A stretch of 64,000 nucleotides of DNA, taken from IMG/VR virus record IMGVR_UViG_3300037418_002743, positions 1-64,000 of that record; one strand, given 5' to 3'. The notes beneath the pieces are model-generated. The model was not told the DNA's origin, searched no databases, and was given only the letters and a program-made list of their open reading frames with translations. Position 1 is the first letter of the stretch. Every line of letters starts with the position of its first letter. This document shows, piece by piece, positions 22,993 to 58,744 of this stretch. Origin of the DNA: a virus. A program made the position numbers and the translations under genes.

Positions 22993-23869
22993 CCGGTGCA
23001 GACCCGCGGGGAGGCGGACACCTTGGGCAGAGCCCAGATCTGGACCTCTTCGCGGTGGATCCCGAGGCGATGCCCGGCCGGGGTCGGTTCGTGCGCAGCG
23101 GCTACGTCGACCCGGTACAGGCCCCAGAGCACCTGGCAGACCTCGGAGCAGAAGTCGTCGCTCACTTCGTCACCGGTGAGCGGGTGGTCGCACCGCCCGC
23201 ACCGGCCCGTGAGCGGCGGACCGGTGCGGGCGGCGGTCTGCCCTACCTCATGCGCTCCCCCGGGCGCATCGGTGGGCGGGTGCCCCTCCGGGGCTGCGAT
23301 GGCAGTCGCGGCCGCGCCGGAGCGGGACATGAGAGGGATGGCCCGGCGGTGGCAGCCGCCGGGTACGGGGGTGGAAACGGGACACCTCGCGATCTGGTCC
23401 TGGCAGGGACCGAGGCGGCCGAAGCCGGTACTGCTTGGGGAGGGAAGGGGCCTTCCTAGGGAGGGAAGGGTCGTGCGGCAGAGGAAGGGGTCGTGCGGGG
23501 GTGTTGCATGCATCGGTGCGAGGGGGGTTGCCCCGATGGTGTGTCGCCGCGCCTATCGCGAGGTTCCCGTCGATCGTTACGGGCGCCTGTGTTCGGCCTC
23601 GTTGACGGACGAACTGTAACCAACTCCAGCTCGGCTTCACTCGCCCGGGTGAGTTTGAAGAGGCTGAACGGTGGGTAGCGGCGCCGGGCGGTCTTACAGG
23701 GTTCAACAGCGTATTCGCCCACCGGACGGCGGTACGCGGCGGACGGTGCGTTACCCGCGGTAGCTGGTGCCCGTCGATGTAACGCCAAAAGAATCAGCCC
23801 GGCCGCGCGCCCAGCGGCAGCGCGACCGGGCTGAGCCGGTGCGGGGTGAAGGTTGCGGTTCGGACTCGA

Positions 23870-24175
23870 TCAGGACGCGGCCGCGGTGACCGGCTGCCGC
23901 GACTCACGCCGCGCCCGCCGCTTCCGCTCCGCGAGACGCTCATCGGCCGTGGTACCGCCGAAGATCCCGTGGTCCTTGCCGGCCGGGACCTCGAGGGCGT
24001 CCTCGAGGCACTCCGCGCGGACCGGGCACAGGCGGCAGAACGACTTCGCCTCCTGCTCCTGCAGCAGGGCCGGGCCGGACGTGCCGACGGGGAAGAAGAG
24101 CTCGGGGTCGACGTCCTCGGTGCGGCACCGAGCACGGGCGCGCCACGACGTGGCGGTGACGAACAGGGGAAGCAT
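23870..24175 (-). CDS. whiB: WhiB-family transcription factor
   Basis: WRARARC..DPELFFP...AKSFCRLCPVRAECL...GIFGGTTADER. Confidence 0.93.
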   Translation of the reverse strand: MLPLFVTATSWRARARCRTEDVDPELFFPVGTSGPALLQEQEAKSFCRLCPVRAECLEDALEVPAGKDHGIFGGTTADERLAERKRRARRESRQPVTAAAS

Positions 24176-24248
24176 GTCGGACTCCTGGGAGGGATGGGTG
24201 TCGGAGACGGCCCGCTGGCAGGCGGGCCGCCCCTCTCTTCGGTTGTCG

Positions 24249-24276
24249 ATACTACCGCGCCATGCGGGGCCGTCAA
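24249..24276 (-). promoter_or_regulatory. Operator-containing promoter of whiB
   Basis: TTGACG-16 nt (CCGCATGGCGCGG)-TAGTAT; leader has CTGCCA hairpin and CCCTCCC. Confidence 0.75.
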
Positions 24277-24349
24277 CCCCTTTCAGCGCAAACGATCTAC
24301 CGGTGGGCTACCCGCGGGCGAGCGGAGGCAACCTTCGCGGTCGGTGCGC

Positions 24350-24646
24350 TCACGCCCAGTCCGGCTCGACGTCGAGCGGGAGCAGCTCCCGGCGGAGCGG
24401 GACCGTCGTCGCGAGGATGACCATGCCGAACGGGACGCGGCAGGCGATCGTCCGGTTCCCGAACTCGTCCCCGCCGCGGAAGACGTACGGACGGCCCGGG
24501 GTGAGCCGCCCGGACGGCCACCACCAGATCCGGGCCGCCACGTCCCGGTCGGCCCGCCGTTCCCGCGCCGCCACAGCGGCGATGCCGGCACCGGCCGCCG
24601 TCGCGGAGACCGCGGCGGCGACCAGCACGGCGTGCAGGAGCCTCAC
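24350..24646 (-). CDS. Hypothetical protein with signal/TM segment
   Basis: GTGA coupling with upstream stop. Confidence 0.45.
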   Translation of the reverse strand: MRLLHAVLVAAAVSATAAGAGIAAVAARERRADRDVAARIWWWPSGRLTPGRPYVFRGGDEFGNRTIACRVPFGMVILATTVPLRRELLPLDVEPDWA

Positions 24647-25056
24647 CGGAGCGCCAGCTCCTTGGACGGCAGGAACCCCGGCAGCGGGCCCCGGCGCTGG
24701 TTGTGCACCCAGCGGAGCCGCAGCACGCCCCGCCAGACCCACCACCAGCCCTCCTCCCCCAGCCGGCGGAGATCCTCGTCCTTCACCCGCGCCCAGCGGA
24801 CGGACTCGATCCCCTGATGCCACAAGGCGTCCTCGAGCGCGGCCCGCGCGCGATCCCTGCACCCGCAGGCCCGCCAGAAGTACGTCAGGGTCGACGTCGG
24901 CTCGTCCACCGCACGCTGCCAGAACGCGAGCTCGCGGCGGAGCTCGGGGAGCGACGGGTGCGGGTCCGGGTCCTCACAGAGCAGCGTGCCGTCGAACCGC
25001 GGGCAGGTCTCGTCGTCGTCGAGCTGCCCGCACCCGCAGCGATTCCAGTCACTCAT
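24643..25056 (-). CDS. Hypothetical protein
   Basis: Coupled ORF. Confidence 0.55.
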   Translation of the reverse strand: MSDWNRCGCGQLDDDETCPRFDGTLLCEDPDPHPSLPELRRELAFWQRAVDEPTSTLTYFWRACGCRDRARAALEDALWHQGIESVRWARVKDEDLRRLGEEGWWWVWRGVLRLRWVHNQRRGPLPGFLPSKELALR

Positions 25057-25342
25057 CGTCGGCGCCCTCGACGATCCGCTCGACGGCCCGGGTCTCCCCG
25101 TGGCTCTCGACGGTCGCGCAGACCAGGGCGCCGAGGCAGACCACGGCGACGATGCCCATGACGATGAGGTACGGCGGCGTCCAGTCCGTCTTGGCGTCGG
25201 AGCAGACGATCATCAGGCCGAGCATGACCCCGGAGCCGAGCGCGACGACCCGGCTCACCGCAGCCGCCACAGGGTGAGGATCAGCGCGCCGATGGGGAGG
25301 CGAATCGCGACGAGGCGGCGGCCCTCGCCGTTGCGGCCGCAC
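25049..25342 (-). CDS. Small two-TM membrane protein
   Basis: Two hydrophobic helices. Confidence 0.45.
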   Translation of the reverse strand: MRPQRRGPPPRRDSPPHRRADPHPVAAAVSRVVALGSGVMLGLMIVCSDAKTDWTPPYLIVMGIVAVVCLGALVCATVESHGETRAVERIVEGADDE

Positions 25343-25391
25343 ATGATCGGAGGGCCGGGGATCTCCCGGTGGATGGGGGCCCAGTAGACGC

Positions 25392-57108: not shown

Positions 57109-57210
57109 CGTCTTCTTCTCTTAGGGAGGGAAGGGACATTTGACGAAGCCCTGACGTGGACCAACGGGTTGGCAGACCCGCCGCGCGGGGCTTCGTCGCT
57201 TTCTACGATC

Positions 57211-57238
57211 ACTCTACCGCTGTTCGCGGTAGCGTCAA
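57211..57238 (-). promoter_or_regulatory. Operator-containing promoter of the recombination operon
   Basis: TTGACG-CTACCGCGAACAGCGG-TAGAGT. Confidence 0.75.
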
Positions 57239-57291
57239 CACCTTTCTTTCTCGCCGCTAGCCGGCGGCAGGGTGTTTCTCCTGGTCAGACC

Positions 57292-57789
57292 CTACCCCGG
57301 GGGTACGACAGTTCCGGAGCCGGCCGAGCCCGCCCGGTAGTAGTCGACGCACGCCGGCCAGTCCCGCCGGACGTCCGTGCCGGCCCCGTGCGTCGCCCGC
57401 GGGTACCGCGTCTCCGCGACCAGCCCGTCCGGGCCGATCCGCGTTCCCGCACGCTTCTCCCAGTGCGTCGGAGCGTGGCGCGTGACATATGCGCCGGCGA
57501 GACACTTCGGGAAACTGCGATTCCCTCCGGGCATCCGCTCCCGGTGGTCGCACGAGCCGCACCGGGGCGTCCCGTCCGACGGCGGACCGAACTCCCGGGC
57601 CGCCTCCGGGTGCAGCGGGAGCGGCGTCCCCAGCGCGACGGAGAGCGGGTGCTGCCCGCGCACGATCGCCGCGGCGTGCCGGGCCCGACGCCACTCCCCC
57701 TCGGTCATCCCCTCGGGGCGCCCAGCGGCGTCCGGGACCCCGACCCGCTCCGGCTCGTCGAACAGCCCCAGCGGCTCCGCGATGCTCAT
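57292..57789 (-). CDS. Hypothetical Cys-containing protein
   Basis: CGSCDH...PKC...TDVRRDWPAC. Confidence 0.6.
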   Translation of the reverse strand: MSIAEPLGLFDEPERVGVPDAAGRPEGMTEGEWRRARHAAAIVRGQHPLSVALGTPLPLHPEAAREFGPPSDGTPRCGSCDHRERMPGGNRSFPKCLAGAYVTRHAPTHWEKRAGTRIGPDGLVAETRYPRATHGAGTDVRRDWPACVDYYRAGSAGSGTVVPPG

Positions 57790-57949
57790 GCGGCGGCCCG
57801 CCTCAGGTGCCGGGGGCGGCTCCGGTGCGGCATGCGGAGCACCAGCGCCCGGCCGCGGGCCGCCCGGTGCGCCCCGACCTGCATCCGCAGGCCGATCACG
57901 ACCCCGACGGCGATCCCGACGACGAGGGCCAGGACGACGAGCTCCCCGG

Positions 57950-58189
57950 TCATGCGGCCACCGCCACGATCCCGACCACGGCCGCGGTGAGCGCACCGAT
58001 CACGCCGAGCGCGATCACGCCCCAGGAGGCGGTGCGGATGATCGGGCGGATCCACTCCCGGTGCCCCATCCCGCCGGCGGCCCCGAGGATCACGGCGAAG
58101 ACGACGGCGGCGCCGAGGATCGTCGCGGCCGCACCGATGCCCCGGTTGAACTGGGCGGAGGTGACCTCCGCGAGGACGGTGACGGTCAC
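57950..58189 (-). CDS. Small two-TM protein
   Basis: Hydrophobic; coupled. Confidence 0.5.
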   Translation of the reverse strand: MTVTVLAEVTSAQFNRGIGAAATILGAAVVFAVILGAAGGMGHREWIRPIIRTASWGVIALGVIGALTAAVVGIVAVAA

Positions 58190-58653
58190 GCCTCAGCCCT
58201 CCGGGGGCGCGGGGAGGGCACGCGCACGGTCTCCGCGTCGGCGCTCGGCGCGGGCTCCGGCTCCGGCTCCGGCTCCGCGACGGGCGCGGGCTGCGTCGGA
58301 GCGGGCTCCCCGTTGTGGATCACCCACTGGACGCCGTCGATCGTCCCCTGCAGCAGGATGTGCGGGGAGTCCTCGTAGACCGTGACCAGCGGGCGCGGGG
58401 AGAACAGGACCGACCAGCCGAGGACCGTCGCGGTGTCCATGACGGCCGTACATCCATGTTCGGTCACATCCACGCTGATCGGGTCACCAAGGTTCTGAAG
58501 AGCCGCCGCCTCCGCTACCCTTGCCGCGGCAACGAGGCGATCACCGAAAGAGGCGGTTTGATCCCTATCCTTACTGCTAGTGTCCGCCTCGGTACGGTCG
58601 GGAGTCTTACGCGACTCACTAGTAGTTCCGCTGGACATTCCGCCGACGTTCAT
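58186..58653 (-). CDS. Hypothetical protein
   Basis: GAGAGGA RBS; CTGCCA hairpin leader. Confidence 0.55.
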   Translation of the reverse strand: MNVGGMSSGTTSESRKTPDRTEADTSSKDRDQTASFGDRLVAAARVAEAAALQNLGDPISVDVTEHGCTAVMDTATVLGWSVLFSPRPLVTVYEDSPHILLQGTIDGVQWVIHNGEPAPTQPAPVAEPEPEPEPAPSADAETVRVPSPRPRRAEA

Positions 58654-58744
58654 AGAGCGTTCCTCTCAACGGGAGGGATGGTGGATGGGACATCCGGCCC
58701 CTGGATGGTTCGGCCGGTGGCGCTGGCAGGCGCCGGGGGTTAGA

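Follow-up and report, generated by a model that had tools for sequence, protein, structure and literature searches.

A putative regulatory RNA hairpin with an invariant CUGCCA loop in mRNA leaders of an uncultured soil actinobacterial phage

What function is served by a small hairpin that recurs through the mRNA leaders of a phage, presenting the same six bases in its loop each time? The first-pass annotation of the window (i.e. the 64,000-nucleotide stretch analysed here) noted twelve such hairpins on the coding (minus) strand. All twelve coordinates are confirmed as CTGCCA flanked by inverted repeats on that strand, and we add four further copies, at 44455, 23350 and 23300 in the window and at 64611, 611 bases past its end.

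Structure and conservation of the hairpin

The 16 copies in the whole 105-kb genome compare with a mean of 0.16 and a maximum of two in 300 dinucleotide shuffles. Within the window a stem of at least 4 bp surrounds CTGCCA at 15 of 29 occurrences on the minus strand and at none of 18 on the plus strand. Among the 252 perfect hexaloop hairpins with stems of at least 5 bp, 13 have CTGCCA as their loop, the second-ranking loop being found four times. RNAfold places CUGCCA in the loop of every copy.

The contiguous Watson-Crick stem is 4 bp at 46107, 5 bp at 58724, 57170, 50267, 41273, 40096 and 23401, 8 bp at 24216 and 10 bp at 44088. At 51658 it is 13 bp, spanning 51645-51676 exactly as annotated. 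The copies at 41942 and 30139 have two perfect pairs followed by one mismatch or G-U, extending to 7-8 pairs. Over the 16 copies compensatory double changes occur at all eight stem pairs, and the loop is invariant at all six positions. Stem cells are paired in 83.6% of cases; the figure for slid controls is 31-50%, and that for shuffles 50%. The earlier proposal that stems vary yet stay paired, through selection on structure, is thus borne out.

A related phage contig (G002), whose terminase is 74% identical, has three CUGCCA-core hairpins with loops of 7-8 nt. Two of these share the leader that separates whiB from a conserved zinc-ribbon gene, in a tandem arrangement like that at 23296-23465 here, and G002 also has one hairpin-box-SD-ATG module (SD, Shine-Dalgarno). 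This leader is syntenic in the two genomes. The loop core is conserved between them and the stems differ.

The motif was also compared with known families, the annotation having recognised none, and this still holds. At the gathering score no covariance model of Rfam 15 matched the hairpin, the only match being a tRNA. Relaxing the threshold to E<=5 over 23000-64000 gave four matches at chance level, none of them to a family. One of the four, to PtaRNA1 (21.8 bits, compared with a 47-bit cutoff), is on the plus strand and just overlaps the 13-bp stem. The stem covariation with an invariant loop, the conserved loop core in G002, the lack of an Rfam family and the SD-pairing box described below support the view that selection maintains a structured element and that its loop is sequence-specific. 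The CUGCCA-loop hairpin is a real, previously uncatalogued and putatively regulatory RNA motif, present ahead of about a dozen early genes of this phage.

Leader modules and the CCCTCCC box

All 16 hairpins match the orientation of their genes. The distance from hairpin to start codon is 32-76 nt. The lone plus-strand copy, of 4 bp, overlaps the start codon of the plus-strand parA gene, behind a CCCUCC-GGGAG pair. Promoter-like -35/-10 pairs, which are consensus matches and not mapped transcription starts, lie directly upstream of 57170, 46107, 30139 and 24216 and farther upstream of 40096. The annotation had placed five copies right after a mapped promoter. In six copies the stem begins 12-18 nt after the -10. 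Five copies stand directly ahead of cistron starts without a promoter, and five hairpin sites come after stop codons.

All the modules that follow are on the minus strand. Leader modules are found at 58671-58734 (hairpin 58719-58734, 5 bp, loop 58724-58729; box 58671-58677; ATG 58653), at 57124-57180 after the promoter TTGACG-16-TAGAGT (hairpin 57165-57180, nested within a longer outer helix; box 57124-57130; ATG 57108) and at 40080-40106 (hairpin 40091-40106, 5 bp; box 40080-40086; GTG 40069 of a DUF7574 gene). The promoter-proximal modules are 46090-46116 (hairpin 46103-46116, with 4 bp, a bulge and two further pairs; box 46090-46096; ATG 46072), 30116-30152 after TTGACC-16-TACGAT (hairpin 30131-30152, with a G-U pair and one mismatch in the stem; box 30116-30122; GTG 30096) and 24187-24229 after TTGACG-16-TAGTAT (8-bp hairpin 24208-24229; box 24187-24193; ATG 24175 of whiB). 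The extra copy at 44437-44464 has a 4-bp hairpin (44451-44464) and a TTCCCTCCC box (44437-44443); it lies within the leaderless ORF 44126-44476, 18 nt after the -10.

Five modules are intercistronic. That at 51632-51676 comes after the stop codon of a DUF2303 gene, with the perfect 13-bp hairpin (51645-51676) followed by a box (51632-51638) and ATG 51615. Boxes lie on both flanks of the hairpin at 50246-50284 (box 50278-50284; hairpin 50262-50277, 5 bp; box 50246-50252; SD; ATG 50228) and at 44073-44113 (box 44107-44113; 10-bp hairpin 44078-44103; box variant 44073-44079; SD; ATG 44058). The other two are 41918-41955 (hairpin 41934-41955, seven pairs with one mismatch; box 41918-41924; SD; GTG 41904) and 41235-41283 (hairpin 41268-41283, the innermost 5 bp of a helix of ~14 pairs; box 41235-41241; linear CACUGCCAUG at the start codon 41218). 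A long leader at 23296-23465 has boxes at 23459-23465 and 23438-23444, and then three tandem hairpins at 23396-23411 (5 bp), 23342-23363 (8 bp) and 23296-23309 (4 bp), the last being just within the ORF that begins at 23330.

As annotated, CCCTCCC lies downstream of the hairpin at 11 of the 12 listed sites; 23401 has no box on its 3′ side and two upstream instead. The box, (U)UCCCUCCC, is 8-46 nt from the hairpin and 0-14 nt ahead of the SD, with which CUCC/GGAG pairing is predicted in several copies, in agreement with the earlier note. Some of this pairing is trivial in that the CCUCC of the box complements the SD. The suggestion of a single bipartite element holds in so far as the hairpin usually has a box, which is present in 12 of 13 hairpin-bearing gaps compared with about 13 of 55 other gaps of at least 25 nt (a descriptive tally). 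The box, however, is independent of the hairpin, occurring without it at at least 10 further gene starts, late genes included (at least 13 candidate sites). One such box is at 26297-26303 (minus strand), 27 nt ahead of a start codon; others are at 5012, 27872, 28255, 30797, 37974, 38449, 35018 and 45309. The median predicted probability that the SD is unpaired is 0.15 in box-bearing initiation regions compared with 0.35 (Mann-Whitney p = 6e-4). The box is a separate start-associated motif, and is predicted to lower SD accessibility.

CUGCCA is also found in linear form, as CACUGCCAUG running into the start codon at 38423-38432 (minus strand), with further sites at 41216-41225, 37956-37965, 34995-35004 and 28233-28242. 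A box and a weak GAAGG-type SD precede all five. The presence of unstructured CUGCCA between SD and AUG at five box-bearing starts ties the hexamer to initiation regions.

Possible functions of the element

We tentatively favour a docking site in mRNA leaders, at which an RNA-binding factor would recognise the loop and affect translation or stability, although this is a possible rather than a probable role. The hairpin would be a cis-acting mRNA element whose short G+C-rich stem (4-13 bp) presents single-stranded CUGCCA, either at the 5′ end of a primary transcript or in an intercistronic gap. CUGCCA is the sole constant feature, which points to docking by a loop-specific factor that could be encoded by phage or host. 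The box would be a built-in anti-SD that damps initiation, and the complex of hairpin and factor would tune ~13 early and accessory cistrons as a regulon, at the level of translation and/or stability. The analysis establishes structure, loop invariance, position and conservation between genomes; its action as RNA, the binding of a factor and an effect on translation or stability are what we infer. Against the docking site, Pfam scans of 121 non-structural proteins revealed no cognate protein and no RNA-binding or antiterminator domain. Hairpins 32-76 nt from the start codon are too distant for direct occlusion, and the copy at 44455, promoter-proximal in a leaderless ORF with no SD to control, favours a role linked to transcription or to the 5′ end.

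The first-pass annotation had offered either a nut/boxB-like antitermination signal or a site for a translational regulator. Selection on a structured element is indeed supported, and sequence does not decide which of these it is. Antitermination or Rho shielding is the main rival to the docking site, and one that we consider unlikely; here the hairpin would recruit a factor to elongating RNA polymerase or block Rho loading on the C-rich leader, giving read-through of the operon. In its minimal form, a 5-bp stem with a 6-nt loop, the element has the size of boxB. Six copies start at the 12-18 nt spacing from the -10, and 44455 retains its promoter-proximal position without an SD. Tandem copies stand in the long leader of the operon that begins past the whiB terminator and heads to the late genes, an arrangement kept in G002. 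The leaders contain 46% C and 21% G, compared with 40% and 31% in other gaps, and the boxes that flank the hairpin at 50267, 44088 and 23401 recall the rutA-boxB-rutB layout of lambda tR1. Yet sixteen sites far exceed the two of lambdoid phages, the five promoterless copies are directly ahead of cistron starts, and the linear box is linked to the SD, on the 3′ side of the hairpin. Neither a boxA-like element nor (by Pfam, in the 121 non-structural proteins) an N/Q-like protein was detected, the one Arg-rich candidate for the latter being the tail of WhiB, and the early region has U-tract terminators at no more than chance frequency.

By analogy with the RNase III sites of T7 and with 5′ stabiliser stem-loops, the hairpins might protect 5′ or 3′ ends and punctuate processing, shielding the RNA from RNase J/E or PNPase or marking cleavage. 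We regard this as improbable. It would suit stable, G+C-rich hairpins that occupy intercistronic gaps and the very 5′ ends of predicted primary transcripts. No particular loop would be required, however, whereas all 16 copies have the same loop and G002 retains its core while the stems drift; RNase III would in addition need stems longer than 4-5 bp. The idea could be saved by a nuclease with sequence specificity, but none was found, and the protein at 19384-19932 carries the PHROGs label 'Rnase E' but no Pfam domain, its model resembling small terminases most, though weakly.

A weak intrinsic terminator without a U-tract, or an insulator between gene cassettes, is very unlikely. Terminators lacking a U-tail reportedly occur in the early region of phiC31, and the hairpins here are G+C-rich and follow stop codons at five sites. 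Against this, none of the 16 copies has a U-tract or was scored as terminator-like on the minus strand, C-rich sequence flanks them on the 3′ side and many stems are only 4-5 bp. Seven copies lie just past promoters, where termination would silence the operon, and true U-tract terminators exist elsewhere in the genome (after whiB, at 65939 and at 76423). One study states that mycobacterial RNA polymerase requires a U-tract for intrinsic termination (PMC3993855).

We give equally little weight to a signal in DNA, by which gene cassettes would be shuffled at a single-strand hairpin or recombination hotspot. Small cassettes form a mosaic in this region, near-identical metagenome variants differ by cassette-sized replacements, and a perfect hairpin is strand-symmetric, with folding energies that do not distinguish the RNA-sense strand from its opposite. 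But the listed variant breakpoints do not coincide with hairpins, no recombinase is associated with the sites, and the fixed order of hairpin, box, SD and start with strict gene co-orientation, the plus-strand case included, is what an RNA signal predicts. It is also hardly likely that the early mRNAs of the phage are dotted with mimics of an anticodon arm, serving either as operators at which a tRNA-binding protein acts, in thrS-type control extended to a regulon, or as decoys absorbing a host anticodon nuclease of the VapC/PrrC kind. Every loop contains U-GCC-A, and C-U-GCC-A corresponds to U33, anticodon GCC and A37 of tRNA-Gly(GCC). Many of the stems have exactly 5 bp, with loops of 6 nt here and 7-8 nt in G002.

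Short start-associated repeats preceded by stem-loops have arisen repeatedly in actinobacteriophages, as in Clusters K and M, and to our knowledge function has been shown for none of them. Here only the six bases of the loop are fixed while the stem can vary freely, which makes the present case unusually informative and defines a minimal 16-nt bait for pull-down of a partner. As an exact SD complement, the adjacent box gives a mechanism at the level of translation that can be tested directly. Should a cognate factor exist, it would define a regulon under post-transcriptional or antitermination control in high-G+C phages, in which regulation of this kind has hardly been explored, and would provide Streptomyces engineering with a compact orthogonal RNA-protein pair. 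An effect on stability only would make the hairpin a useful but ordinary leader part.

Comparison with known systems

The lambda nut site resembles the element in having a very small, loop-recognised hairpin and a linear element near the start of an early operon. However, its boxB has a GNRA-like pentaloop, where the hexamer CUGCCA is found here in 16 of 16 copies, and its boxA is 5′ of boxB and not C-rich, where the conserved CCCUCCC is 3′ of the hairpin and SD-linked. No common motif was found 5′ of the hairpins apart from occasional extra boxes. With two sites per genome in lambda compared with 16 here, and no N-like protein found by Pfam in the 121 non-structural proteins, we do not class the element as a lambda-type nut site; nor, lacking U-tracts, does it fit an intrinsic terminator.

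In proposed mechanism the element is like Mu Com, T4 RegA and IRE/IRP, in that sets of mRNAs are controlled via their leaders. Com activates translation of mom, and RegA controls many early mRNAs post-transcriptionally. Com opens or closes an SD-sequestering leader structure at a single site, compared with many sites here, and the target of RegA, at the start codon, is AU-rich RNA without structure rather than a hairpin; no homologue of either was detected in this phage. In the E. coli thrS leader, too, a hairpin precedes the SD, and its loop imitates the tRNA anticodon loop. That loop has the canonical 7 nt, whereas the loop here is 6 nt, in many copies on unrelated genes with no known synthetase link.

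Cluster K mycobacteriophages contain 11-19 phage-specific SAS elements per genome, oriented with the gene near the start codons of unrelated genes and absent from the host; about half have an inverted-repeat element immediately upstream, and a translational role is suspected (PMC3203893). The SAS is the 13-bp GGGATAGGAGCCC, 3-8 bp before the start, and the ESAS has a variable spacer between inverted repeats of 17 bp that are conserved (PMC3203893). The likeness is of short start-associated repeats in gene orientation, in positional logic only. GGGATAGGAGCCC contains the SD, whereas the box is its complement and lies upstream of it; ESAS arms are conserved around a variable spacer, whereas the hairpin has variable arms around an invariant loop. 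Sequence and architecture therefore place the element outside SAS/ESAS.

According to PMC7953290 (citing Pope et al. 2014), Cluster M mycobacteriophages have arrays of small early genes, each with a stem-loop and then a CR3/CR4 repeat before the ATG. This order, shared with our modules, is seen directly in the sequence of the Cluster M phage Bongo. There, stems and loops both vary, and the repeat (…ACGGAGAAGGGAA) carries the SD, with neither CUGCCA nor a C-rich box; the hairpin model (R1) had no match in Bongo. With a different repeat and loops that are not conserved, CR3/CR4 is a distinct element. The SAS/ESAS elements and the CR3/CR4-plus-stem-loop arrangement are the closest precedents for the element described here.

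The CUGCCA hairpin and the genome that carries it

The twelve sites listed in the first-pass annotation are all minus-strand CTGCCA hexamers between the arms of an inverted repeat. Flanking arms with at least four contiguous Watson-Crick pairs are found for 15 of the 29 minus-strand CTGCCA sequences in the window, compared with none of the 18 on the plus strand. There are 16 such hairpins genome-wide, against an expectation of 0.16, and none of 300 dinucleotide-preserving shuffles gave more than 2; the copies absent from the earlier list have their loops at 44455, 23350, 23300 and 64611, the last just outside the window. 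CTGCCA is the commonest hexaloop by a wide margin, closing 13 of 252 perfect hairpins, and the next loop occurs in 4. RNAfold places CUGCCA in the loop in 16 of 16 copies.

On alignment of the 16 copies the six loop columns are invariant, while no stem column is conserved. The stems had been said to vary in sequence yet stay paired, and the alignment bears this out; all eight stem pairs carry changes in both arms. The fraction of paired cells is 83.6% overall compared with 50% after shuffling, and the observed value was reached in none of 500 shuffles. Sliding the partner by 1-3 columns lowers the paired fraction to 31-50%. Loops with one mismatch are essentially absent from the genome, the search returning only 48709 (CUGCCG) and 16311 (CUGACA), both left uncounted. 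We note a perfect 13-14 bp hairpin at 48696-48727 with the loop CTGCCG (or a tetraloop TGCC), inside the coding sequence 48064-48741 and with no CCCTCCC box after it. A covariance model of the hairpin gave no convincing further match elsewhere in the genome, and the two strands were not told apart by folding energy together with a G-U versus A-C test. Searches of Rfam at the gathering score and at E<=5 both gave no match, so the earlier view that this is not a known family holds. The element is very probably a genuine, selected and structured motif.

The virus record comprises 105,275 bp with 72% G+C, its first 64 kb being the window; it comes from a rhizosphere metagenome assembly and is 92% complete according to CheckV. 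Variants of about 98% identity are present in other soil and rhizosphere runs, one variant contig measuring 38.5 kb, and among the differences listed for contigs from four runs none lies at a hairpin. Cassette-sized segments (43209-43353, 44390-45318, 46145-46384 and 53189-53376) are replaced or absent in near-identical soil-metagenome contigs, indicating that mosaic exchange is ongoing in the accessory region. Genes lie on the minus strand nearly throughout, with capsid, portal and terminase at 0.1-9.7 kb, an integrase at 14.7-15.7 kb, and RecT and a YqaJ exonuclease at 54-56.6 kb; WhiB, Lsr2, a LexA-like protein, ParA and others were also identified. Such a set of genes is typical for phages infecting Streptomyces-like actinobacteria. 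ARAGORN calls tRNA-Pyl(CTA) at 12318-12402 and tRNA-Gln(CTG) at 15773-15848 in the window; Rfam confirms only the latter, and the tRNA-Pyl call is doubtful. Searches of INPHARED by DNA or protein gave no close phage, and no relatives were found in IMG/VR with RecT or DUF7574 or in GTDB genome contigs with DUF2303 or the portal; the sole match in JGI metagenomes has 28% identity.

Location relative to promoters, the CCCTCCC box and start codons

Promoter-like sites were defined by the pattern TTGNNN-N16-18-TANNNT. The hairpin begins 12-18 nt downstream of the -10 in six copies (64611, 57170, 46107, 44455, 30139 and 24216), and would therefore lie at the extreme 5′ end of the predicted transcript. 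Several of the promoter-like sites upstream of hairpins have a palindromic operator. Five copies (51658, 50267, 44088, 41942 and 41273) follow a stop codon without a promoter, and three (23401, 23350 and 23300) form a tandem array in a long leader. Copy 44455 and its box fall within an ORF that is leaderless (ATGACGAAC…) and lacks a Shine-Dalgarno sequence (SD). Most of the genes that follow a hairpin are ORFans, and the stretches from hairpin to start codon contain 46% C and 21% G. Leaderless cassettes, with the start codon (often ATGACGAAC) 6-7 nt after the -10, occupy 40277-48062 and beyond; promoters there are overlapped by a palindrome resembling TACCGCG-N3-CGCGGTA, exact palindromes being found at genome positions 67255, 67311 and 69241.

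The genome contains 57 copies of CCCTCCC on the minus strand compared with 11 on the plus strand. The box follows the hairpin in 11 of the 12 sites of the first-pass annotation, as reported there, and by simple tally is present in 12 of 13 hairpin-bearing gaps; among other gaps of at least 25 nt the figure is about 13 of 55. It is also found 17-37 nt before at least ten hairpin-less gene starts, for example those of 4572-5000, 25392-26276, 27453-27851, 27891-28235, 30227-30769, 37662-37958, 37994-38425, 64722-65774, 66951-67205 and 99749-100366; structural-module genes are among them. The box therefore constitutes an independent start-associated sequence. Thus the proposal of a bipartite element is retained only in part: the association of hairpin and box is strong, yet the box also occurs alone, and the hairpin is an optional addition upstream of it.

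The box is complementary to the SD. When initiation regions were folded by partition function, the median unpaired probability of the SD was 0.15 in those bearing a box compared with 0.35 (p = 6e-4), suggesting that the box may lower SD accessibility, an effect that follows partly from the sequence itself. The box sequence also forms a stem arm in strong bidirectional terminator hairpins at genome positions 65939-65975 and 76408-76430, outside the window, which have the form GGGGGAGGG…CCCTCCCC followed by T-runs.

Five box-bearing starts (41218, 38425, 37958, 34997 and 28235) have an unstructured CUGCCA, as CACUGCCAUG, separating the start codon from a weak GAAGG-type SD, compared with about 0.35 such starts expected by chance on a rough estimate. 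The recurrent order is CCCTCCC box, weak GAAGG-type SD and CACTGCCATG, with CTGCC abutting the start codon (41216-41225, 38423-38432, 37956-37965, 34995-35004 and 28233-28242 in the window). Genome-wide there is one plus-strand CUGCCA hairpin of 4 bp, and it overlaps the UUG start codon of the plus-strand parA gene (genome 78060-78100). Its stem is CTTG/CAAG with the TTG start inside, and it is preceded by a CCCUCC-GGGAG pair. The stem-loop, linear and parA arrangements together tie CUGCCA to translation initiation regions in three geometries.

Conservation in a related phage and candidate partner proteins

A terminase search of IMG/VR gave five related contigs (G001-G005). CUGCCA-core hairpins were found in just one of them, G002 (69 kb, terminase 74% identical), which carries three, each on the strand of the genes. 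Genes that the phage of the window shares with G002 include 10089-10478, 19175-19384, 21913-22992, whiB, 29794-30096, 56600-56755 and 60443-61324. One has a 6 bp stem and the loop CUGCCAC, followed by CCCTCCC, SD and ATG; the other two have 5 bp stems and the loop UCUGCCAC, 37 nt apart. This tandem pair lies between the orthologues of whiB and of 21913-22992, i.e. at the position of the tandem array in the window. Both phages share the order of a terminator after whiB, a promoter-like GTGAAG-N17-TAC(A/G)GTTCGTCC, a leader with TTCCCTCCC, and the hairpins. Although the flanking proteins share only about 45-50% identity and the two sets of stems are unrelated, the core of the loop is preserved, providing independent evidence for a sequence-specific partner. 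The GTGAAG site (window 23585-23625, G002 50480-50520) lies just past the whiB intrinsic terminator and lacks the palindromic operator of other promoters; it may be a middle or late promoter. G001, G003, G004 and G005 have no convincing copies, although some of these contigs are incomplete and stop short of the relevant region. In the more distant Amycolatopsis phage-plasmid pAmyja1 (portal 45% identical) neither CUGCCA hairpins nor a dominant loop were found, and a motif pattern scan of IMG/VR gave 11 single, chance-like matches and no multi-copy contig.

Pfam scans of 121 non-structural proteins revealed DNA-binding regulators and no RNA-binding or antitermination domain. Three proteins were considered as the trans factor and set aside. 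That encoded by 23870-24175 has an Arg-rich tail and is a WhiB protein. The product of 19384-19932 carries the phrog_645 label 'Rnase E', has no Pfam or PDB sequence match, and gives a model (pLDDT 90) that most closely, if weakly, resembles small terminase subunits; the label looks unreliable. The conserved 359 aa protein of 21913-22992 (phrog_908), whose gene directly follows the tandem hairpins at the boundary between early and late genes, has two CxxC…CxxC zinc ribbons, no Pfam domain, and a model of pLDDT 72 with no PDB fold match.

Possible function and comparison with known systems

Our first-ranked reading, tentatively held, is that the hairpin would be the binding site of a putative loop-specific factor affecting translation or stability, with the box acting as an anti-SD in cis. 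This is favoured because of the linkage of hairpin, box and SD, and the linear copies close to start codons. Nut-like or Rho-related antitermination ranks second and is rather unlikely; the fixed spacing from promoters, copy 44455, the conserved tandem array heading a long operon and the C-rich flanks are consistent with it, while the early region has no more terminator-like sites than expected by chance, canonical terminators existing elsewhere in the genome. A pure stabilizer or processing signal is improbable, explaining the invariant loop poorly. The same objection applies to a terminator and to a DNA-level signal, each very improbable; a U-tract is absent in all copies.

The element lacks the GNRA-like pentaloop and the 5′ boxA of nut sites, and the defining features of intrinsic terminators and of every Rfam family. 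It comes closest to the SAS/ESAS of Cluster K mycobacteriophages (PMC3203893) and the CR3/CR4 of Cluster M with upstream stem-loops (PMC7953290), both of them start-associated repeats without assigned function. The element is of interest because its loop is minimal and sharply defined, making the long-open question of what start-associated repeats do experimentally tractable. The logic is common to these systems, whereas the sequences differ. The design of ESAS is inverted, since here the arms are variable and the loop invariant, and the box is an anti-SD in contrast to the SD-bearing repeat described for Clusters K and M. An architectural parallel is found in Mycobacterium phage Bongo (69-78 kb of the record), where many leftward early genes have a variable stem-loop and then, immediately before ATG, the conserved repeat …ACGGAGAAGGGAA. 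The CUGCCA element is a new, uncatalogued RNA motif of an uncultured phage lineage, with an architecture akin to that of other actinophage start-associated repeats.
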